Part shown: positions 8,635 to 52,646 of the stretch, piece by piece
Layout: each line of letters opens with the position of its first letter
Position numbering within the stretch: the first letter of the stretch is position 1
Assembly: GCA_000182565.2 (NCBI GenBank)
Contig: KQ257473.1
Source of the DNA: Spizellomyces punctatus DAOM BR117
Taxonomy: Eukaryota
Length of the DNA stretch: 64,000 nucleotides
Reading direction: 5' to 3' (one strand)
Program-made: the position numbers and the translations under genes
Notes under the pieces: generated by a model
The model's input: the letters and a program-made list of their open reading frames with translations, nothing else
Told to the model about the DNA's origin: nothing
The model's database searches: none

Positions 8635-9972
8635 CTAGATCTTGCCAAACATATTGCCATGATCCCAGATTTCTTTACATTTCCGAAGTCTATCCAAATT
8701 GGAACCCCAGAGAGCTTCTGCGCTCTTGTGATGCGACTGGTTGGTATATTCTCCCTGGGAATACCTCTTCAATCGTTCGGCACCCGCTTGGACCCATTGG
8801 ATGCATGGTTCTTTCTGACTGATTTCCGTCCACTCAATTCCGTAAATAAGCCACCAGTTGCTGTCGCGATGAGAAAAGGCGGTATCGCCAGATGGCACAT
8901 CTTGAATCGCACCATCAAATGGAAAGATGGCGACAAAACCGGTCGGTTGCGGTAGGGTGGATAGCATATCCAAGCAAGTGTCGATAATTTCGTCGTTGAT
9001 GTCCGCCAGGAACAGGTGCTTGTCGTGCATTCCGATATTTGGAGAGTGTATATCTCCCAGCATGGATTGAAGCTCGACATAGGTAGATTGGCGGACGCTG
9101 CTCATCAGTGGCGCGGAACCAGCGAGGTTCTTGAACGGCTCTATGGCTAGTGTTCCTTTGTCAACCGACGGGCCAACGTAGGATAGAATGACGGTTGCAG
9201 AAGGTCTCCGAATCTTATCGGCATCCGGAACGAACCCAAGAACAAGAGCGCCACTAACATGACGAGTTGCGCTTGTCATGGCCGCGACGTACGATTTGGT
9301 GAGAGATTTCGGTTCATTAAAACCGTAGAGGGCCATCCCAGAGAGTGTTGCTGGGACCGGATAGAGACGGAAACGAAACAGCGTGCATACCCCGAAATAT
9401 CCTCCTGCACCACGCATAGCAAAGAAAAGGTCTGGATGAACAGCTGCGGAAGTCGTAATCAGCTCTCCTTTCGAAGTGACAACGTCCATGGACACGATCC
9501 CATCTATTGAGAGTCCATATTGCCGAGACAAGTAACCCCATCCGCCGCCCAAAGTTAGGCCTCCAACACCAGTGTCAGGGTCAGTCCCAAACGGTGCATG
9601 CATGCCAAAGAGCGAGCATTCGCGATCAACTTGGCCAAGTTTCGCGCCTCCTTGCACGGCAACAGTTCTGTTCACAGCGTCAACAATGACGGCGTCCATA
9701 TGCCTTAGATCGATGGCCAAGTGATCATTTTTGTAGCATCGCATCGAGTGCCGACCGCCTGCAACTGTAACGGGTATTTGGTTTGACGAGGCCCACTTGA
9801 CACATTCAATGACATCCTTGTTATTCCGAACGTAAACGATGGCCAAGGGAAAAGCGTCAAGGTCATGATTAAAAGTGTCCTTTCTGGCCTTGTCGTATGC
9901 CCCGCCTTGTGAAGGCTCAACGATGGACGTGCCTGGCAGCAGGGATTTTAAATCCTCAAGTTTTGAAGCCAT
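8635..9972 (-). CDS. FAD-linked oxidoreductase, berberine-bridge-enzyme / vanillyl-alcohol-oxidase family, intronless
   Basis: PLAIVY, GGRHS (covalent-FAD His motif), TGVGGLTLGGGWG, DLFFAMRGAGG, C-terminal YTN..WGSNLDRLRKCKEIWD. Likely start MASKLE at 9972. Confidence 0.9.
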   Translation of the reverse strand: MASKLEDLKSLLPGTSIVEPSQGGAYDKARKDTFNHDLDAFPLAIVYVRNNKDVIECVKWASSNQIPVTVAGGRHSMRCYKNDHLAIDLRHMDAVIVDAVNRTVAVQGGAKLGQVDRECSLFGMHAPFGTDPDTGVGGLTLGGGWGYLSRQYGLSIDGIVSMDVVTSKGELITTSAAVHPDLFFAMRGAGGYFGVCTLFRFRLYPVPATLSGMALYGFNEPKSLTKSYVAAMTSATRHVSGALVLGFVPDADKIRRPSATVILSYVGPSVDKGTLAIEPFKNLAGSAPLMSSVRQSTYVELQSMLGDIHSPNIGMHDKHLFLADINDEIIDTCLDMLSTLPQPTGFVAIFPFDGAIQDVPSGDTAFSHRDSNWWLIYGIEWTEISQKEPCIQWVQAGAERLKRYSQGEYTNQSHHKSAEALWGSNLDRLRKCKEIWDHGNMFGKI

Positions 9973-11281
9973 TATTCTGCAACCAAAGTGAACGGGGGAA
10001 AGGTAGTTTTGACGAGACGGGCTTCTCTCAAATAATCGGTCAATTGACCTTGACTCATCTTCAATTCGCTGAGGAGGTTCATTGTACACACACACAGATA
10101 GCGTTGGAGCACGTTGGGAAGATCCAGGAATTTGGCCTACTACTTGGCACGCATTCCACGAGGCCCAGGCACTTTTCTAAACTCCTGACCCATTGTCTTG
10201 TTTACTCCATGTGTACTCCAACTAACGTTTGAGCCGGGGAAACGAACGCCAGCATTCAAAAGTATTGAAAAGCACAGTTTCTCAGCCAAACGAAGGGACC
10301 CTACCTCCGAACGATATCTTTATGCCCGAGAAGGCTGAATACTTGTCGGCGCCATTGAGTTACTTTCCACGTGGATATACTCGTTAAGTTCCAAAGTCAG
10401 CGTCGCAAAGCGTGTGTCATCCCAAAAGGCACCTTCAGTTTGTATCAAGTCATATGGATTTTGGCTTTGAGGCGAGAAATGTGACTCGGAAAGACCGTCC
10501 CTCATGATGCATTCCATTTCCACTGAAGGTAAAAGTGTAAAGCGGAAGATTTGTGTAGCTTATCGGACATTCCAATCCTCGTTGGGATATATGTGCACCA
10601 TATCAGTTTTCATGTACTCTTGCACAGCGTGTCAAGCTTGAGAGGCCTTCCGACGATAAATCAAAAGTTTATGTCTTGCTGACCATCATGCATATAATGC
10701 AATGCAATGTACCATGTCGTGCGTCCTAAACAGCCCGAGCCATTGTCGTGCTTTTTGTTGTCATAATGTAAACCCAACATTGGTAACAGCGCAGGGGATG
10801 ATAACCCAAGGTTTGTCGTTTGCCCTGACCCTAACGGCTGACCAAACCAATGTTTGTATTCGCATCACCAAGTGGGATAACCAGCACGACACACGATATC
10901 TTGAATATTCAACAAATTCCATGCAAGTAAACGCGCTTGGGCACTGGAGGAGCCCATTGATCGCTCCAGTTAACAATATGGGGGGGAACGATCCGTATTA
11001 TTTTAAAAAGGTTGTTCATCTCCACCATATCGTTAAAAGAAATAAAAAAAGAAAACGACAAATCGAAGAAAACGTTTTTGGATTTTCGCTCCAAGCGCCG
11101 AGTTCGACAAAAAAATCTCCTTTTGGGATTCTAAACCCTCACCACGTTTTTTTACGCTACCGGGCTCAACTTTCATCCACTCTTTTGGGGCTGCGCAAAC
11201 GGTTGTGTCGTAGCTGCTGTTGGGCGGTTTTCGCCGACGAGGAGGACAGTTTGACGTGTCTTTCACGACACCAAACCCTTC

Positions 11282-17432: not shown

Positions 17433-20105
17433 CTATATCTCTTTGGGAAATTTATCCGCAAAACTCCTGGATCTCTTCATATGCGCTCTTTCCAGTGTGC
17501 CCAAATCTGTCTCGCTACCTGTTCGATGAATCGGTGACGGGTTTTCGACAAGCCCCGGTAGATCCGTCATGGATTTCAGTGGCCTCAGGACAGCAGTAGC
17601 TGGAGGCGAAGGGTATCGGTCATCCGTTGACAGGGAGCTGGAGGACTTGTTGCGATGCGGAGAAGCAGGCAAGCTGGGAGGTGGACCAATAAGAGTTGAG
17701 TTGATTGATGACTTTGATGAGTTGGCATTCAAAGTCGCTAGACTGCTACGAGAGGAGCTAGGTGACGGACCGCTCTGACTGAAACTTCCTCGGCTGCTTC
17801 GTGCCGCAGATGCAATGCTCGAGCGCGAAGCGAAACTGGACCGGGAGGAGAGAATTGAAATCGTATCCGCTTCTTGAGCGGTTTTGCGCGTTGTTCCCCA
17901 CGTAAAATCGTCCAATCGCCCTATATACGAATAGTTTTGCTCATTTTAAAAGCCATCATTTTGCCAGACCACAAAAGAACACACTCACAGCAAGACCACA
18001 GCGGAATCACAATTGAAAAGATTGGAAAGCACAGCACAAAGGGTATGTACCAAAACAACTGCTCGAAATGCAACGTCGCAATGGTGATGATCAATCCAAC
18101 CGATAAAAGAACAAAGGACGTGACCATCGGGAAAAGGTATAATCCGGCTTCAACAACTGCGCAAAAGACCAAGTAAAGGAACTGGAGAGTCAACACTGGC
18201 GTAATGAGACAAACCCCGAGTTCGACCAACACGACAAAGCGCAGAGCCAGACCGCGAAGGCCTGACCGAGGATCATATGCAAAGACCTCAATGTGATTGT
18301 GGATAAGAGAGTTTGTCCATCGTCTTCGTTGGTTGAGGAGAATAGGAAGCGAAGTAGGGACGCTGGTTATACAAATCGCTTTTGGGATAAACTCGGTGTG
18401 CATGCGATGAAACTTGCGTAGAAGGAGTGTACTAAGGAACCGGTCTTCTCCGATCTTATATCTAAAAGAAAGCAAATCATCAACATCTTATGGTCCGGCG
18501 TTCGATGATCGTAGTGATCAACTTACAAGTTACATCTGTGCATTGTCAACTCAAATGGCTCGCCCGTGTATGGATTGCTTCCGTTATACATGGCAATGAT
18601 AAAATCGTCGCAGAGCCGGGGTTCCCACTGCCCTGTATCGGGATTCTTTTGCTTGATTCGGTACACTGCAAAGCAACCAGAGAGCACGAGAATTTCTCCC
18701 AAAAGGCTTTCAAATGACTTTAGGAACCGATGAGTAATGAAATACTCATATACTTGTGCCGCGGCCGTAATTGACTCCCATTTGTTTTCAACCGCCGTTT
18801 CGCCCGTCGTTCCCAGAATGGTTGGATCGCGCTCCATCACGTTAATTTGACGGGATAGCCCATCTGGCAAGACATATGTATCGGCGTCGGTGAGAAGAAA
18901 GTATTCAAAGTCAAGCGGGTCTAGACCGAGATCCTTAAAATGCTGGTCTAGTTCAATATCGAGGGCTGACCACTTGTCACGCCTGTTCTTCCAGAAATTG
19001 ACCGATCGAAGAAACTTCATGATGATGAGCTGAGAATCTCTCTTGCTCCGGTTCCCAAGCTTTGAAATATCCGTGTCGTTCAGGCCAACTTTTACTACCA
19101 CAATGTAAGGAACACTGCAGTGTTCCGTCTCATGCCATCCCGAGTATACTTGAGCAGCATTCATGCGAAGGTCTCCAACTCCAGTGGAAGGGTAAGTAAC
19201 CGGATCGCGCTCATCCCCTTCCCAGAATAACACATCGTGCAGCAAGATATCGGGTGTTGGCATTTTTTGGTTCTTGCCGACAATCAACCCGTCCATGACC
19301 AGAAACAACAGCTTTTTCTCATCCGGATACTCCAGGTCCGCCACAGAATCCACTGTTTTTTGCAAAACGTCTTTGGTCTCTGAATAGCAAGGGACATGGA
19401 GAATCACACCTTTTTGGAGACTGTCATTTGTCGGGTAGGATTTGAATTGTGTGTAAGCCGACGCAATGACAATGACGATGAGCACGATGCCGGAAAGACC
19501 AGAGAGGACCAGGATGATCCAAGAGTAGTAATAACAAAACGTGTCCTGCGGGTACAGAGAGCGTAGGAATTCAAGCTTTGCGCGGGTTTTTGGTGCAATC
19601 ACCATTTCTGGTGTGTAAATGGATGGGTCGGGGCACCAAAAGACGGGAATGTACAGGACAATGAACAGTCCGATGACGGTAATTAGGAGGAGAAGAACGC
19701 ATACTGCAAGCTTTTCACGCCTTTTTGAACCGAAACGGTTTGGTGAGTTGTGTAAAAATCGGCAAAAAAGACGAGGGGACTACCCACCATGCAATGCGTG
19801 CATCTTCTCGTGTAATGAGTCTCCGCAAAATAAAATCCGGGATGAAGAACGTCAGGATTCTTGTCATGATCATCCATGCTTTATACCACCTGCAAGACAA
19901 GGGCCACCATCAGTCCTTGTTTTTTGGAGGCAACACCTAATACGTATGGAGACCCGTACTTGTCACTACTCTCAGGCCACAATACCATGCGCCTTCTTCG
20001 TACAGGGGGCACTCCATCGTCTTGATCTCGCCTCCTTCTGCGGTCCCGTCTCGCGTCGCGGGCTAGCGGAGAAGGAACCTGGGGTTGGGTCGAAGGCACG
20101 TTCAT
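17433..20105 (-). CDS. Chitin synthase (GT2, division 2-like, no myosin motor seen)
   Basis: GNRSKRDSQ, TDADT, QVYEYFITH, VLSGCF, GEDRFLSTLL, QRRRW, DDFTWG. Inferred first exon MNVPST.. splices in frame to WYKAW..LTFFIPDF. Confidence 0.93.
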
Positions 20106-38919: not shown

Positions 38920-41900
38920 CTACCCCTTGACATCCACCTTCTCCTCCTTCTCCTTCTTCTTCCTCACTCCACCCCCCCTCCTCCAAAAAGTGCCCCCAAA
39001 AGCCTGCTCATACTCGCAAAAAAAACAGACCCATTCCCCAGGTTTATCCATTTGACGAATGGCGTTCGTGTAGCGCGCGCGACGGTACCGGTAGGGTATG
39101 AGCGGTTTCGAAAAGGTGGAGAGGATGGTTTCGTTCGTGTCCTTGTCGTCGGAGGAGGTTTCGGAGGGAAGAGATGGGGGTTTGTCGCGGGAATTGTCGG
39201 TCGTGCCCACAGTTGGAGCAGAGGGTGTACCAGATGTCGTGGTTTGCGGCTGCTGCTGCTGCTGCTGTTGTGGTTGTTGCTGCTGCTGTTGAGCAGCGTT
39301 ACCGCCCCCTTTCTTTTTCTTTTTCTTTTTAGCTTTGGTTGCGGGTGGCGCGCCCGTGGGAACCACTTTGGTATGCGCTGCTTCGATCGCCAACACCTTT
39401 TCCAACTCTGTGTCGTCCAGTAGATCAGGTAGATCTGTAATCTCTTGTATATCTGAATAATCAATGTCGGCTTCTTCTTTCTCAAGCTCGTCGCTGGGTG
39501 TGTTGGCTGGGGTGGGAGGTTGTGCGGGTGCAGGCGTAGGTTTGGGACCCACTGAAGTGGGGGAGCCTCCCTCCGCCTGCGTTGCAGCCGTGGCATTCGC
39601 TTCAGAAATATCACTTGGAGACGGCTTGGTTGAAGACGCTGATGTTCCCCCGGTTCCCGTTTGCCCAAATTCAAATTTCATCTCTGTGGGGGAAACAACA
39701 ATTTTGGGTCTCGGAGGAAGGTCGCCGTCATCCACTCCAGGAATCGAAAACTTGACTCGCCCATTCACCCCACCCGTCTCTATTCCAACGCCTAAACCAT
39801 TACTGGCTGCCACAGATCTAAACCCTCCATCAAAGCCACTTCGTCCAAAACCATTTGAAACCGTTGCAGCACTAACCACCTCATTCTCGCCATTTCCATT
39901 CCCCATCAACGAAGCCGGTAATGCTCGTTTCTTGTTCTTTACTCCTTCACTAGTTCTGTTGGTGCTGTTTCGAAGACTTTCATCCTCTGAACTGCTATCA
40001 CCCATGAGCCCCTGCTGGCCGACCAGTCCCGTCCAAGTCAAAGTCGGCGCCGGGACAGACTGAGAAGTAATCGTCGACGTTCGGCCCGGTGAGGATCCGG
40101 ACGGGTATGCTGGAGGTCGAAGCTTTTTCTTTGGCAAAGGTTTGATCGGCTTATGGAATACCCCGGGGATCCCCGGGTACAGCGACCCGCTGGCCGACCC
40201 TGGGCTGAGCGGAGAGTTTGCCAAATCAAAGGCAGAAGGCATACTGCCGCGGGGTGGAGTCACAGGAGCAGGGGGGAAAAAGGGATTAGAGTTTGTGGGG
40301 GACGCGTTTGAAATACTCGAGGCTGGCACAACTCCTCCTTGTCCAGGAAGCGAGTAGCCTGGGTTAGGCGGTAACGCTGTTGGGATGGCCATACCCGCCG
40401 CAGGCGGCGTTGATACAGTGGGAAAAGATTTCATAGCAGTGGGACCTGAAAGTTTCCAATGTCAGCATGTCCATCCTCGGAAGACAAACAGATAAGCATT
40501 CATTCCTACCAAACGCTGCGGAAAAGAATGGCATAGTTGCGCCAGAGGTGAAGGCTTGGGCTGAAAGCTCGTCGGAGTCACCTTTCGGTTGCATGGAACC
40601 ATCCATTACCAATGTTGAAAAGAATGGCATCGCTCCGGTAGGAAACGTCTGACCAGACAGTTCCTGGCCCTCAGCTCCCGACTCTAGTTCCCCGCTCGTC
40701 GACGCAACTTGATAGAAATTGCCAGTCCAAGCCGTGCTAGGAATGCTATTGGAGAAAAACGCAGACGATGCATGCTTCCTAATATCCACGTTGGAAGTAT
40801 CGTCCGTTCCACTTGGCCCCATTCGACCTGTCAACTGTTCCTTCGTCTCTGCTCCGGTAAACTGCTTTTGCTGATTCATATTTCCAAAAGGCGGAATGAG
40901 CGAACTTGTTTGCACCATCGGCGTCGGACTCCACCATGCACACCCCGAACATGAATGCTGAACTACACGGCCTTGGGCATCCGTCACTTCATGGAAATGT
41001 GGAGGCTGTGATTGCAGAAGACCGTTCGCGGCTGGATACATAGCAAAGCCGGGCTTGGGCATCGCTTGCGCACTTTCGCTAGTGGCTGGCCCTGCTGTTG
41101 ATGCAAAATTACAATTGATTTGCATGGACAGGCTAGAGTCCGTTCCTTTCGCACCACTAGCGCCTGGCTCTGGCATAACAGAAGAACTGTCAGTCACCAT
41201 TCCCCCAGTCCCTTTCTGTATTGGACCCGCAGGTGATCCTGGTTCCGCTATTCATTTGAATTGTTGGTGAAAACTATGCAGCGCGTAATACGTCTACCTT
41301 TTGTGACTTACCAGCGCCTGGCACAGCGTCGACTGGTGGTGCCTGAAGCTGTCCCTCAAAAGACATCCTCGCTACCAGATTCGGTATTGGTCCAATCGGA
41401 GTCGGTTCCTCTATCTTGTCCACAATCGCCTTTCCCACAACAGAAGATGCGACGGTAGGAACGTGTGTCCAGTGAACAAGGGACGGCTTATGCTTTGCGT
41501 CTCCGTGTAGGGGAAGATCCGTGCTAAATGAGCCCGCTCGCTTCGTCCGCTGGTGGGATGGTAAACTGAATAATCCTAGTCCGTGTGGAGAACCGGGACT
41601 ACTTCGGGCTAGTGATCCCTCGCTGACGGGTGAAAAAAGTGACTTTCCTGCGTTCTTTCAAAGAGTAAAGTGATGAGATTTGAGCAATAATTGACACATC
41701 TATTCAGCCATGTAGCACCGCTTCCTCACCGTAAAACTAGCGTTATGCTCTACAGGGGCTATATCAAGGCTGATAAGCGGAGTGGAAGATGTACCAGGTG
41801 ACAACGGCTTCGTGTACGAAGGCTGCGTGTTATTCCGGCTTCTAGATCGACGACGTTTCGGAGGCGATAACCAAGGTTGCTCTGATTTAATACTCGAGTA

Positions 41901-49655: not shown

Positions 49656-50121
49656 GGCTGTAAACCAAACAAACAAAAACGATACGGCAATGAACAAGTC
49701 CAAAGTGGTAATGCCAATTGGCAAGCTGGCAGGCAGATCGCTGGATAACGTGATCTCACATGACCCATATATCTCATAATGAAATGAACGCGTCTGCCTC
49801 CTCCCGATCAGATTTAATAATCAATAACCAGTTTCCTCCTTCTTTTTCCCACGCACTTGCCGACTAGATGAACATGCACTACAAATACATAGGAAAATAG
49901 ATATACCATCAGATATGCTTTGTATCGCTAATAACATGATACTTCAGGCTGACTCTGATACCATTACCATATCGTAAACAAGATCTGGTCCAATCTCAAT
50001 GTAGATGGAAGCGTTTTGCCTTGATAGATAGACACTTGTTTGCAGTTGATAAATGTTCATTTGCAGGTCTTTACGCCGTCTGTCAGCTGACTCATTAATG
50101 TTCCCATAGCGACCAACCCTT

Positions 50122-50127
50122 TATAAA
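50122..50127 (+). promoter_or_regulatory. TATA box of the putative snoRNA host transcript
   Basis: TATAAA about 25 nt before the first repeat unit, divergent from SKI2. Confidence 0.5.
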
Positions 50128-50261
50128 GACGTTTTTTTTCTTCCAGAGCGGTTTCCCACGCTTGTTTTTCCTTCCTTCTCCTCACGATCATCTTCAAGGC
50201 GAGTCATCGGTTGGACGGCATTTGCATACGGTACGTTGCTACAGCCAGAGATGCATGATGA

Positions 50262-50333
50262 AAGGTCACAAAGGATGAAGTACGATCTCTGATATCATGA
50301 TTATATCGAAGCTTTGTGCTCTGATGTGACCTT
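50262..50333 (+). ncRNA. Box C/D RNA copy 1
   Basis: Stem AAGGTCACA/TGTGACCTT; C AGGATGA 50272; guide AGTACGATCT; D' CTGA 50289; C' ATGATTA 50297; D CTGA 50321. Confidence 0.75.
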
Positions 50334-50566
50334 CATAGCATGACCTATTTTTACTTTATGCGTCAACTGATTGCTAACGAAGCTTTTGTCTTTTCTTCTT
50401 CTCATATCTGCCGCGCACCTTTACGGGCTTGCCTCTTTCTTCCAAGGCCCAGTTTCCAACGCTTGTTTTTCCTTTCTTCTCCCCCACCATCATCTTCAAG
50501 GCGAGTCGTCGGTTGGACGGCATTTGCATACGGTACGTTGCTACAACCAGCGATGCATGATGCATG

Positions 50567-50638
50567 GAAGGTCATAAAGGATGAGGCAACGCCCCACCTG
50601 ATAACATGATGATATCCGCATGCTCTGATGTGACCTTC
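50567..50638 (+). ncRNA. Box C/D RNA copy 2
   Basis: Stem GAAGGTCATA/TGTGACCTTC; C 50578; guide GGCAACGCCCCAC; D' 50598; C' ATGATGA 50606; guide TATCCGCATGCT; D 50625. Confidence 0.78.
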
Positions 50639-50865
50639 GTAGCATGAGCTTTACTTTACTCTTTCATGCGTCAACTGATTCGCTAACGATGCTTTTCTCC
50701 TTTCTTGACCCATATATCTGCCCCGCACCGCTATGGCTTTGCCCCTTTCTTTCCAAAGGGCAGTTTCCCACGCTAGCTTCCCCGCCTCCCCCCACCACTC
50801 TCGACGCGGAACATGGGTTCAACATTTGAACCATCCGGTACGTTGCTACACACCAGAGATGCATG

Positions 50866-50960
50866 GAAGGTCACAAAGGATGAGGTACCATCACCCTGAT
50901 ATAATGATTATATCGTCATTCACCACGTCGGCGACGACGTGGTGCTCTGATGTGACCTTC
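50866..50960 (+). ncRNA. Box C/D RNA copy 3
   Basis: Stem GAAGGTCACA/TGTGACCTTC; C 50877; guide GGTACCATCACC; D' 50896; C' 50904; internal 10-bp hairpin with GCGA loop; D 50947. Confidence 0.75.
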
Positions 50961-51190
50961 GTAGCATGGGCTCTTTCTTTACTCTTCATGCGTCAATTGA
51001 TTCCTAACGATGCTTTTGTCCTTTCTTCTTCTCATATCTGCCACACACCGGACGGGCTCGCCCTTGTCTTCCAAGGCTCAGTTTCCCACGCTTGCTTCCC
51101 CGCCTCCCCACCATCATTTTCAAGGCGAGTCGTCGGTTGGACGACACTTCCATAGGGTACGTTGCTACAACCAGAGATGCATGATGCATG

Positions 51191-51276
51191 GAAGGTCACA
51201 AAGGATGAAGTACGATCTCTGATATCATGATTATATCGTTATTCGCCACACCCCCGTGGTTTCTGATGTGGCCCTC
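51191..51276 (+). ncRNA. Box C/D RNA copy 4
   Basis: Stem GAAGGTCACA/TGTGGCCCTC; C 51202; guide AGTACGATCT (same as copy 1); D' 51219; C' 51227; D 51263. Confidence 0.7.
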
Positions 51277-51970
51277 GTAGCATGAGCTTTTCATTCCTTA
51301 TGCATCAACTGATTGCTAACGATGCTTTTTTCCTTTTTCACATATCTGCTGCACACCTGTATAAGCACCTTTGCCGATGTTGGATGTAACACACCAAGTC
51401 GCTAGTCGCGCGATGGAAACCGCCATGCACACGTTAACGTTCGTTGGCGCTGGCTTCGAGCATCCTATTAATGAGTTATCCGCGGACATTGGTAACAATA
51501 TTCCTCACTTGCACAAGGCCGTGTTGCGTGCGTTATTATATAGGATAGGTTTCACTCTATTAAATATTCCTATTGTCCGTAGTTGGTTGTGTTGACAATC
51601 AAATATATATTACTTTTACACATTGTTTACACCAAGAATAACATCTCTTGCGATGGTCACTCCATTGAATATCAGAAGATACCAAACTGAAACTTGGCTT
51701 AATGCGGCAGTAAGTTTTTATGGGTATTGATGCCTGCAGTTTTCAAAGAGTTGCACTGTCAAAAACTGTAGTTGTTGATAATTATCGTGAATGCATGCAG
51801 GTTTTGCTTTTCCATCGTCTTTCTTGCATGGAGAAACCATTTATACTTGCATCTTCAGCACCTTACAAGGCTCACTTTCCAGCACTTGCATCCCCCCACA
51901 TCGCCCTCGAGACGTTGGACAACATTTCAACCATCCATCCGATACGTTGCCAAAACTAGAGATGCATGGT

Positions 51971-52038
51971 GAAAAGTCACAAAGGATGAGGTATATGATT
52001 ATATCCCCGTCGCAGACATGGTGTTCTGATGTGAATTC
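51971..52038 (+). ncRNA. Box C/D RNA copy 5, degenerate
   Basis: C 51983, C' 51995 and D 52026 retained; D' box and most of the first guide deleted; donor mutated to ATACGT. Confidence 0.5.
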
Positions 52039-52186
52039 GTGGCATGAGCTCCTTTTACTTTATGCGTCAACTGATTGCTAACGAGGCTTTTTTCCTTATT
52101 CACATATCTGCCGCACACCTGTATTGGCCCCTTTGCTGACGTTGGATGGATCACACCAATTCGCGAGTTGCCAACGGAGACCATCA

Positions 52187-52646
52187 TGGACACGCCAACG
52201 TTCGCTGGAGCTAACAAGAAAACCGGCAATGATTTCAAGGCAGCATCAACCGTTAATGAAAAAAATTTGACGAAGAGGCAAATGCCGGCTACGGAGGTTG
52301 TCGGGAATACTAAAAGGAAGAAGCCTAAGAAGAAGACCATTCTTTAATTTGGGCTCTACCTCAGCATACTCTTTCCCACCTCCCTCCACGGCCTTACCCA
52401 AAGCTTGCTGCGTGCGGCCCAGGACACGCTCACCACCAGTGGCGCGCCAAACCTCTTAGGGGGTTACCGAAACCGTCACCCACTCGACCTACCCGACCAC
52501 AACACAGATTGGCAGCCGATCGCATGTACCCAGGGATCCTGAGGTCACGAGGATGTCGAGAATCCAAAGAAGCCGCCTAAAAAGAAGAGGAAGAAAAACA
52601 ATGGCACTTCAACTGAAGATGCTTCACAAACGGCGGGGCCATCCGG
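52187..52646 (+). pseudogene. Disrupted Lys-rich ORF downstream of the box C/D array
   Basis: MDTPTFAG..KRKKPKKK then stop at 52347; later segment ENPKKPPKKKRKKN ending at a GTATGG donor-like site. Confidence 0.4.

Follow-up and report, generated by a model that had tools for sequence, protein, structure and literature searches.

The plus-strand interval 50122–51660 of the window, the 64-kb stretch of Spizellomyces punctatus DAOM BR117 DNA (contig KQ257473.1) that was analysed as a whole, is, with a probability that we put at roughly 0.8, a Pol II snoRNA host gene without convincing coding capacity, in which one exon–intron–snoRNA unit has been tandemly duplicated to give four. Snorna host genes with tandem paralogues are known, and this locus would be a further example; its anatomy and inferred mechanism are those of ordinary intron-encoded box C/D snoRNAs.

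Direct reading of the interval gives a TATA box, as the first-pass annotation of this DNA had noticed, followed by four tandem units of ~300 bp, with a start-to-start spacing of 301–325 bp. Each of units 1–4 consists of an ~80-nt exon and a 209–238-nt intron with the signals GTACGT ... CTAAC ... AG, and a single canonical box C/D RNA lies inside each intron (Table 1). The branch-point A is 46–72 nt from the first AG in all four intact units; the snoRNA ends 44–49 nt before the branch-point A and begins 29–35 nt from the donor. Each predicted intron holds one snoRNA between donor, branch point and acceptor at a processing-competent distance, and the earlier assignment to intron-type box C/D snoRNA genes is borne out. 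Tandem Repeats Finder made no call on the ~300-bp array.

The exons had been described as looking non-coding, and they carry no convincing ORF. Spliced as predicted, the RNA has no ATG ORF longer than 72 aa (216 bp), none of nine local ORFs reached the Pfam cut-off, the 60-aa inner ORF of the terminal exon was without a Pfam match, and when the ORFs that follow units 4 and 5 are compared, similarity is gone ~90 nt into the exon. By ORF length, Pfam search and comparison of paralogous ORFs, the host has no conserved ORF. The window also encodes a chitin synthase ORF, a 513-aa ORF with no Pfam family and one weak chytrid match only, and an FAD-binding ORF whose relatives are only ~33–36% identical, the few named ones being bacterial; no tRNA genes were found in it. 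One window ORF matches a protein named for S. punctatus DAOM BR117 at 100% identity, which outweighs an assignment to Ascomycota suggested for the chitin synthase ORF.

Table 1. Features of the snoRNA host gene and of the downstream relic, in window coordinates; exons and introns are predicted.
Feature	Position	Strand	Details
TATAAA	50122-50127	+	read directly; upstream of exon 1; putative promoter of host gene
Predicted exon 1	50150..50230 (5' end approximate)	+	ends at donor G/GTACGT at 50231; RNA depth ~0 in bin
Predicted intron 1, 216 nt	50231..50446	+	GTACGT donor; CTAAC 50374-50378; first AG 50445-50446
snoRNA unit 1	50262..50333	+	stem 50262-50270 / 50325-50333; C 50272-50278; D' 50289-50292; C' 50297-50303; D 50321-50324
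Unit 1 variable parts	D' guide 50279-50288 (guide A); spacer 50304-50320	+	direct reading
Predicted exon 2, 86 nt	50447..50532	+	RNA depth 0.74 in bin 50420-50513; last 19 nt counted in next bin, 50514-50607
Predicted intron 2, 226 nt	50533..50758	+	CTAAC at 50683; AG 50757-50758
snoRNA unit 2	50568..50637	+	stem 50568-50576 / 50629-50637; C 50578-50584; D' 50598-50601; C' ATGATGA 50606-50612; D 50625-50628
Unit 2 variable parts	D' guide 50585-50597 (guide B); D-side guide 50613-50624	+	direct reading
Predicted exon 3, 79 nt	50759..50837	+	RNA depth 0 (bin 50702-50795) and 1.3 (bin 50796-50889, which covers part of exon 3 and reaches into snoRNA unit 3)
Predicted intron 3, 238 nt	50838..51075	+	CTAAC at 51004; AG 51074-51075
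snoRNA unit 3	50867..50959	+	C 50877-50883; D' 50896-50899; C' 50904-50910; D 50947-50950
Unit 3 variable parts	D' guide 50884-50895 (guide C); 36-nt spacer 50911-50946	+	10-bp hairpin inside spacer
Predicted exon 4, 81 nt	51076..51156	+	RNA depth 0.6-1.8
Predicted intron 4, 209 nt	51157..51365	+	CTAAC at 51316; AG 51364-51365
snoRNA unit 4	51192..51275	+	C 51202-51208; D' 51219-51222; C' 51227-51233; D 51263-51266; 3' stem arm with 2 changes
Unit 4 variable parts	D' guide 51209-51218 (guide A, same as unit 1); spacer 51234-51262	+	
Predicted terminal exon	51366..51660 (3' end approximate)	+	carries longest ATG ORF, 72 aa
Unit 5	51941..52082	+	C 51983-51989; C' 51995-52001; D 52026-52029; CTAAC 52078; stem degenerate

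The C box AGGATGA, the D box CTGA and the CTAAC element are present in five of five units; in every copy a G replaces the U at the second position of RUGAUGA, a variant form of the C box. C' reads ATGATTA in four units and ATGATGA in one (unit 2), and D' is CTGA in units 1–4. The predicted snoRNAs are 70–93 nt long and are closed by a terminal stem of 9–10 bp, in which 38 of 40 cells are paired across units 1–4; the stem changes include two one-sided G·U and no compensatory changes. When the folds were compared with those of shuffled sequences, 0 of 200 shuffles were as good for units 1 and 3 (z = −3.63 and −5.36, the latter with the internal hairpin), and the result was weaker for units 2 and 4 (12 and 6 of 200 as good). 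The most variable parts are the D' guide and the C'–D spacer. The D' guide is AGTACGATCT in units 1 and 4 (guide A), GGCAACGCCCCAC in unit 2 (guide B) and GGTACCATCACC in unit 3 (guide C); the spacers of units 1 to 5 measure 17, 12, 36, 29 and 24 nt, the range of 12 to 36 nt originally given for a second guide.

With up to one mismatch allowed, a 15-mer of the scaffold is confined to these five sites, and a covariance model built from units 1–4 and run over the 64 kb with filters off found only the same five copies, scoring 86.7–96.8 bits for units 1–4 (94.9 for unit 1), 32.7 for unit 5 and at most 20 for the rest. Between units, stems and boxes are 90–97% identical and flanks 72–86%, as anticipated by the description of a near-invariant scaffold with variable guides; conservation of the scaffold is significantly above that of the flanks in four of the six pairs of units 1–4 (Fisher p = 1.6e-4 to 0.018).

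The five units of the first-pass annotation are better described as four intact units and one relic than as five equals, because unit 5 has lost the donor, the acceptor, the D' elements and most of the stem. Its donor reads GATACGT, with GT changed to AT, and the paralogous acceptor AG has become GG; it is without both D' box and D' guide; its fold retains 5 stem pairs only and is no better than shuffles (z = −0.01); and its sense RNA depth is 0, the reads there coming from the minus strand. The series of donor, stem, C, D', C' and D boxes and CTAAC ascribed to every unit thus stands for units 1–4, while donor, D' and stem are degraded in unit 5. Together with ~90 nt of the next exon, unit 5 would be a partial, older duplicate, 500 bp downstream, that is dead.

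RNA reads were taken from one run chosen by its species label, of which ~6% was sampled, and 176 reads were placed; a second run placed none. In units 2, 3 and 4 the reads accumulate over the snoRNA bodies: plus-strand depth on the snoRNA bins was ~10 for unit 2, ~7 for unit 3, ~5 for unit 4 and ~1.3 for unit 1, with 0–1.8 on the internal exons. On the terminal exon it was 5.6–6.8 at 51360–51547 and 2.85 at 51548–51641. Three reads carry a 17-nt non-templated A-tail after 50633, 5 nt downstream of the unit 2 D box. These tails establish the strand and place a snoRNA-like 3' end in this unit. Most unit 2 reads begin at 50585/50586, directly after the C box, and no full-length snoRNA 5' end is present among the reads. 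The 176 reads contain no splice joints, which is uninformative either way because they are at most 60 nt long and 3'-end-tag-like, and exon depth is low. At least three reads start at 51365, the last nucleotide of predicted intron 4.

For splicing, snoRNP assembly, methylation and targets, we infer a conventional course. The intron would be spliced out, the C/D core proteins would shield the box C/D RNA and exonucleases would trim its flanks; the 9–10-bp terminal stem would join the C and D boxes for assembly and then be partly trimmed. This would yield four RNAs with one scaffold and three different D' guides, to which unit 2 adds a 12-nt D-side guide. Each RNA would be expected to direct fibrillarin-dependent 2'-O-methylation of whichever nucleotide pairs with guide position 5, counted upstream from D' or D.

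The search for targets covered 106 metagenomic fungal contigs (ITS1F-scan loci) with 293 kb of rDNA, none known to be from S. punctatus, and no convincing target was found there for any guide. An ITS4-site scan of viral contigs gave no further rDNA. The negative is weak, since the set covers rDNA alone and is not known to include that of S. punctatus. Weak candidates were obtained for two guides. That of guide A is an LSU site, AG[G/A]TCGTAC[T/C], to which just 19 of the 106 loci extend; the pairing is of 10 bp with one G·U in 4 loci and of 9 bp in further loci, and places a C at +5. Guide C has two possible 18S sites. The first, GGTGGTGGTGC, pairs over 11 bp in 35 loci, with two G·U of which one is at +5; the second, TGATGGTACC, near nt 115–125 and with an A at +5, forms 10 Watson–Crick pairs starting at position 3 and was seen in 3 loci. 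When the guides were shuffled and tried on three complete rDNAs, they equalled guide A in 45–69 of 300 trials and guide C in 10, 10 and 159 of 300; guide B and all C'–D spacers were at chance level on the fungal rDNA set. We placed the N. crassa sites Am1845, Am1859, Um1866 and Gm1907 on the guide A site by spacing. Am1859 and Um1866 probably fall in the part of the LSU that pairs with guide A; the C at the +5 position of this duplex is absent from the N. crassa site list (comparison with CD28/CD22).

No match in the whole window reached an Rfam gathering threshold, and a search relaxed to E ≤ 10 brought up nothing beyond weak matches to generic C/D models, the best being that of unit 2 to the archaeal snoPyro_CD. 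In the full texts of papers, the guide strings and their complements recovered only unrelated primers and siRNAs, and inside the window the guide complements match the guides alone. Chytrid snoRNAs are barely described; the papers found to name both Spizellomyces punctatus and snoRNA are, by title and abstract start, on other subjects than its snoRNAs.

It is possible, if somewhat unlikely, that these same genes carry orphan guides that are evolving new specificities, the scaffold being selected and the guides replaced, with non-rRNA or lineage-specific targets or a guide-independent role, like SNORD115/116. In its favour, unit 2 leads in read number and in the quality of its boxes, yet neither of its guides forms a gap-free helix longer than 9–10 bp in the 293 kb of fungal rDNA; of the ten aligned positions in its D' guide, only three agree with the guide of units 1 and 4, against flanks that are 83–86% identical (Fisher p = 1.5e-4 and 4.4e-4). 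The C'–D spacer is indel-rich, with that of unit 3 locked in its hairpin, and an Rfam family match is absent. However, free-gap alignment of the unit 2 and unit 1 guides gives 6 of 10 matches (p = 0.037), the guide of unit 3 differs from guide A at the flank rate (p = 0.4–0.5), and guide A pairs with a conserved LSU site; moreover, the rDNA searched was that of other fungi, so missing targets count little. The guide-versus-flank test thus appears to bear out the proposed diversification of guides for unit 2 only, with a strength that depends on the alignment (p = 1.5e-4 to 0.037), and not for unit 3.

We consider it improbable that the units are redundant duplicates in neutral decay, with one copy or none working and the others on course to end like unit 5. 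That copy is plainly dead, one of the two changes in the 3' stem arm of unit 4 breaks a pair, few reads fall on unit 1 and the guide of unit 3 has diverged at the rate of its flanks, all as decay would have it. Against this, the scaffold is significantly above the flanks in pairs that involve each of units 1–4, donor, branch point, acceptor and all four boxes are kept in all four units, RNA comes from units 2, 3 and 4, and the guides of units 1 and 4 are identical (10/10) despite a 17% difference in their flanks.

That the array was recently amplified, as first suggested, is doubtful, because the flanks differ by 14–28%. The units resemble one another in a mosaic fashion, which suggests that the array has undergone unequal crossing-over or gene conversion. 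RIP was ruled out as the source of unit differences: transitions make up only ~54–68% of flank substitutions, which is not RIP-like. In the DNA reads, three half-frequency variants lie in units 1–2, each matching what the paralogous units carry, and read depth is raised over units 1–2. A more ambitious interpretation, which we think rather unlikely and offer tentatively, is that of a lineage-specific C/D family of an early-diverging fungus gaining new guide specificities by tandem duplication, gene conversion and guide replacement, with unit 2, the best-expressed member and one with two guides of 12–13 nt, acting beyond the conserved rRNA core. S. punctatus is amenable to genetic manipulation.

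The first-pass annotation had also invoked prokaryotic TIGR arrays. These are described as lying in a prokaryotic or viral genome next to a Nop-domain Tas gene, with compact dual-repeat or stem-loop units that give ~36-nt tigRNAs (PMC12045711). The likeness is formal, tandem units with dual variable segments flanked by box C/D-like motifs (PMC12045711), helped a little by unit 2, which an archaeal C/D model matches weakly (27.6 bits, cut-off 45), and a TIGR-like programmable guide array or other prokaryotic-type system can be dismissed, since the locus is in a chytrid genome, its ~300-bp units bear spliceosomal signals, its RNAs of 70–93 nt lie inside introns and its boxes are canonical eukaryotic ones of RUGAUGA/CUGA type, as against 36-nt tigRNAs with short CCA/UG motifs, none of the defining features given for TIGR-Tas being found here (PMC12045711). 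Membership of a TIGR array is thereby refuted and the analogy fails as kinship; the accompanying remark that no Nop-domain gene is visible agrees with our scan, in which 0 of 25 ORFs, not an exhaustive six-frame set, had a Nop domain. Unit 2 does resemble archaeal box C/D sRNAs (snoPyro_CD) in its compact, symmetric order of C, 13-nt guide, D', 4 nt, C', 12-nt guide and D; it differs from them in its location inside a eukaryotic intron, in the length of its terminal stem and in a score below the cut-off of that model.

Closer relatives in design are found among fungi, and the host gene would resemble both UHG/GAS5-type hosts and the cluster hosts of Neurospora crassa. In that fungus 45 of 55 C/D snoRNAs are described as intronic, one per intron (PMC2780460). 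As in its UHG-like hosts, clusters I–VI, each intron here has one C/D snoRNA and canonical fungal splice signals, at comparable snoRNA-to-splice-site distances, and the host ORFs are short (159–267 bp in clusters I–V, five of the six; 216 bp here) (PMC2780460). Unlike the Neurospora clusters, which combine different snoRNA families, the four introns here, in a chytrid, hold paralogues of one family in duplicated exon–intron units; snoRNA paralogues are rare in Neurospora, which its authors credit to RIP (PMC2780460).

A survey of the fungal snoRNAome reports that a single species often has several paralogues of one family and that antisense elements move or change among related snoRNAs (PMC5824354). 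Our array is like such families with persistent paralogues and target switches, compared by description only; the word 'tandem' is absent from the main text of that survey (PMC5824354). With four tandem copies, three guides and one scaffold, the array would be a compact natural example of how guide specificities originate by duplication, recombination and guide change, because a fungal species usually carries just one member of any snoRNA family (PMC5824354). If the guides have real, distinct targets, this would be target switching in progress; if they have none, the array would be a small fungal orphan-array model.

The SNORD115 and SNORD116 arrays of mammals are built of units that each comprise a non-coding exon and a snoRNA-bearing intron; they run to tens of copies and are expressed in the brain. 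Our array is like them in its tandem units that carry box C/D snoRNA genes, in a possible orphan status, and in a probable history of copies gained, lost and altered by non-allelic gene conversion (PMC12429941). The mammalian arrays are imprinted, and one SNORD115 antisense element is described as strongly conserved across copies, whereas here there are 4 + 1 copies and the D' guides differ between them (PMC12429941). If the reading of unit 2 as acting beyond the conserved rRNA core is true, it would be a fungal counterpart of these orphan mammalian snoRNA arrays.

The array is real and expressed: it groups intron-type box C/D snoRNA paralogues, with one dead copy adjoining them. Its layout was established by direct reading of positions 49800-52500 and scripted motif location. 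Units 1-4 lie head to tail with start-to-start distances of 301-325 bp. Each consists of an exon-like stretch of ~80 nt, which terminates at a G immediately before GTACGT, followed about 30 nt past GTACGT by the start of a box C/D RNA of 70-93 nt (snoRNA 1-4). CTAAC is found 44-49 nt 3' of the RNA, with the first AG 46-72 nt beyond the branch-point A; the predicted introns of units 1-4 measure 216, 226, 238 and 209 nt. Within the RNA, the 5' stem arm AAGGTCA[C/T]A leads to the C box AGGATGA and, after the 10-13-nt D' guide, to the D' box CTGA. Four bases separate the D' box from the C' box ATGAT[T/G]A, which is followed by the C'-D spacer of 12-36 nt, the D box CTGA and the 3' stem arm. The conserved TATC 3' of C' pairs in predicted folds with the GATA of D' plus linker, and is therefore probably structural rather than part of a guide. 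The spacer of unit 3 contains a hairpin, and that of unit 4 has a weaker 5-bp hairpin at the matching position; as modelled, both look like internal stems that shorten the spacer, and not like guides.

Features of the array and its surroundings
Feature	Coordinates	Strand	Remarks
FAD-binding oxidoreductase ORF	8635-10176	-	
Chitin synthase ORF	18523-19779	-	100% identical to SPPG_08656, Spizellomyces punctatus DAOM BR117
513-aa open frame	38920-40461	-	no Pfam family
Units 1-4	50122-51660 (from the TATA box)	+	
TATAAA	50122-50127	+	upstream of units 1-4
Spacer of unit 3	50911-50946		perfect 10-bp hairpin, GCGA loop
RNA antisense to unit 5	51548-52205	-	depth 0.9-7.9
Decayed unit 5	51941-52082		
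Covariance-model match in unit 5	51971-52042		32.7 bits
113-aa ORF	51999-52340	-	sole ORF of the antisense stretch; no Pfam family

A covariance model trained on units 1-4, and run with filters off over the full window, scored these units at 86.7-96.8 bits; apart from them and the fifth copy, no match in the window exceeded 20 bits. The first-pass annotation had described five C/D units, and its anatomy is accurate for four of them, but the fifth is a relic. Its donor position reads GATACGT, the intron-4 terminal AG is GG at the paralogous position, and a deletion has removed both D' guide and D' box. The stem is down to five pairs, the fold does not improve on shuffles (z = -0.01), and sense RNA depth is 0 in RNA run X17. 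Because the sequences downstream of units 4 and 5 are homologous for ~90 nt into the next exon, where homology ends, unit 5 is a partial segmental duplicate of a unit plus the start of the terminal exon. The antisense RNA across this region converges on the host transcript's 3' end.

Accumulation of array RNA was followed in run X17, matched by species label, of which about 6% was sampled and 176 reads were aligned. Nearly all of these (156) are first mates of at most 60 nt that start with ~9 unaligned letters of low agreement, which suggests a tagged library of the 3'-end type. On the + strand, depth was 9.4-10.3 on the two bins with snoRNA 2, 7.3 for snoRNA 3, 5.2 for snoRNA 4 and 1.3 for snoRNA 1, and 0-1.8 in bins made up mainly of internal exon. 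In three reads that begin at 50600, the genomic match stops at 50633 and gives way to 17 non-genomic A residues; array RNA is therefore of the + strand, and the tail places a 3' end 5 nt past the D box of unit 2. A C/D snoRNP would halt exonucleolytic trimming at this point. Adenylated snoRNA ends are familiar from work on the yeast exosome and TRAMP. Depth on the + strand, 5.6-6.8 over 51360-51547, falls to 2.85 by 51641, consistent with the host transcript ending here. No splice joints were listed for the X17 reads, a count of little weight since inserts measure 51 nt, exons 80 nt, and the library is biased towards 3' ends. Reads also pile up at two starts, 23 of them at 50585/50586, immediately 3' of the unit 2 C box, and at least three at 51365, the final base of predicted intron 4. 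The ~9 loose letters preceding these starts do not match upstream exon ends, and no X17 read shows a full-length snoRNA 5' end; library priming bias, truncated RNA or some other cause may account for the pile-ups. A 186-nt contig from the 2011 run X10, labelled organism B, is identical to window positions 51506-51691 and probably comes from the same species under another label.

We aligned the units with MAFFT and computed mean pairwise identity among units 1-4. The scaffold is conserved significantly above the flanks in four of the six pairs (p = 1.6e-4 to 0.018), which speaks for selection on all four copies as RNAs, at present or in the recent past.

Mean pairwise identity among units 1-4, by segment
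Segment	Identity	Identity with gaps as differences
5' stem arm and C box	97%	
Intron 5' flank	95%	82%
D box and 3' stem arm	92%	
D' box, linker and C' box	90%	
Intron 3' flank	79%	
Branch point to polypyrimidine tract	79%	
Exons	74%	
C'-D spacer	65%	34%
D' guide	60%	

Guide divergence beyond that of the flanks, the test set for the proposed diversifying cassette, appears in unit 2 only, a moderately robust result of sequence comparison. The unit 2 guide matches those of units 1 and 4 at 3 of 10 MAFFT columns (p = 1.5e-4 and 4.4e-4), or at 6 of 10 when gaps are placed freely so as to maximize matches (p = 0.037 and 0.068). The excess does not extend to unit 3, whose guide matches at 7 of 10 positions, the flank rate (p about 0.4-0.5), nor to units 1 and 4, whose guides are identical (10/10) with flanks that differ by 17%. 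Similarity between units is mosaic: units 1 and 2 have the most similar exons (75 matches against 5 mismatches), units 1 and 4 the most similar snoRNA 5' halves (98% over 51 nt), and a spacer insert is common to units 3 and 4. We infer that unequal crossing-over or gene conversion has acted within the array. With transitions at 54-68% of flank substitutions, the divergence is not RIP-like.

DNA reads of the ChIP run X18 carry another letter at 50344, 50391 and 50458 in 5 of 11, 5 of 14 and 8 of 12 otherwise clean reads, in each case the letter of paralogous units, and 50232-50513 has 2-3 times the depth of the bins next to it. There may be units beyond those assembled, or a gene-conversion polymorphism; ChIP enrichment could also be the source of the depth. 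At 51307, 51322 and 51324, X18 reads differ from the window in 5/5, 5/7 and 5/7 cases, linked on the same reads, which suggests a strain difference, misassembly of the unit 4 intron, or cross-mapping.

Candidate rRNA targets were sought in 106 fungal metagenome rDNA contigs retrieved via the ITS1F primer (293 kb, sense strand), with rRNA boundaries of three complete units set with Rfam; since none of the contigs is known to be from S. punctatus, the test is weak both ways. For guide A of units 1 and 4 (AGTACGATCT), the pairing partner is AG[G/A]TCGTAC[T/C], a conserved LSU site around position 1825-1870 in the complete units, reached by only 19 of the 106 loci; the candidate duplex has 10 bp with one G.U in four loci and is 9 bp long in others. 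Am1845, Am1859, Um1866 and Gm1907 are listed for Neurospora crassa LSU in Table 1 of PMC2780460, and placing them by spacing alone suggests that the duplex spans the stretch with Am1859 (CD28) and Um1866 (CD22, snR62/U34 family). The nucleotide at +5, a C, is not among the sites listed there. Guide C of unit 3 (GGTACCATCACC) has two candidate 18S sites, the universal stretch GGTGGTGGTGC (11 bp, including two G.U pairs of which one is at +5; 35 loci) and, from guide position 3, TGATGGTACC near the 18S 5' end (10 Watson-Crick pairs; 3 of the 41 loci reaching that end). Guide B of unit 2 and all C'-D spacers paired at chance level across the 106 contigs. On the three complete rDNAs, shuffles equalled guide A in 45-69 of 300 trials, guide C in 10, 10 and 159, and all other segments in 71-288, save for the spacer tails of units 3 and 5 on rDNA locus L110 (35 and 50).

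The predicted exons join into an RNA of ~620 nt whose longest ATG ORF is 72 aa. None of nine ORFs in and around the array reaches the Pfam cut-off, those after units 4 and 5 are unrelated past about 10 residues, and the host gene is probably non-coding. Elsewhere in the window, the next best matches of the chitin synthase ORF are at 81% (Phlyctochytrium arcticum). Its full identity to the S. punctatus protein assigns the window to a chytrid and not to a filamentous ascomycete, so that a database hint at Ascomycota was mistaken. Other ORFs are ordinary fungal ones (NRPS-like reductase, lipase, kelch protein, chitin deacetylase, P-type ATPase, C2H2 factor). Relatives of the FAD-binding ORF, self aside, show about 31-36% identity among the 120 matches listed, the few named being bacterial and most being unnamed metagenome or other records; judged by these matches, it may be laterally acquired or fast-evolving. 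The 513-aa frame has a single distant match, a Geranomyces protein (25% identity over 15% of the query).

Mechanistically the array is ordinary. Its resemblance to prokaryotic TIGR arrays, raised in the first-pass annotation, does not hold: TIGR systems are defined by a host that is prokaryotic or viral, compact repeats that yield 36-nt RNAs, and an adjacent Nop-domain Tas gene (as described in PMC12045711), and here the genome is that of a chytrid, the RNAs lie in predicted introns and are of 70-93 nt, and none of the 25 window ORFs scanned has a Nop domain. No Rfam family reaches threshold in the window; the best match below threshold, in which unit 2 scores 27.6 bits on a generic archaeal C/D model with a cut-off of 45, arises from the compact symmetric layout of this unit. 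What makes the array modestly interesting is that its tandem paralogues differ in their guides but share one conserved scaffold, that it fits no recognizable family, and that the best-expressed copy is so far without a convincing target. In a limited literature set, no earlier account of this kind of array was found, either for fungi or for S. punctatus. Fungal snoRNA families are reported to have one member per species as the norm, with several paralogues in some species and antisense elements that switch between related snoRNAs; the word 'tandem' is absent from the main text of that study (PMC5824354). The host with its short ORFs matches the UHG-like hosts of N. crassa clusters I-V, reported to have ORFs of only 159-267 bp, in a species where 45 of 55 C/D snoRNAs sit one per intron (PMC2780460). 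The closest architectural analogue is provided by the mammalian SNORD115/116 arrays, described as orphan, tandem, and moulded by copy change and gene conversion (PMC12429941).
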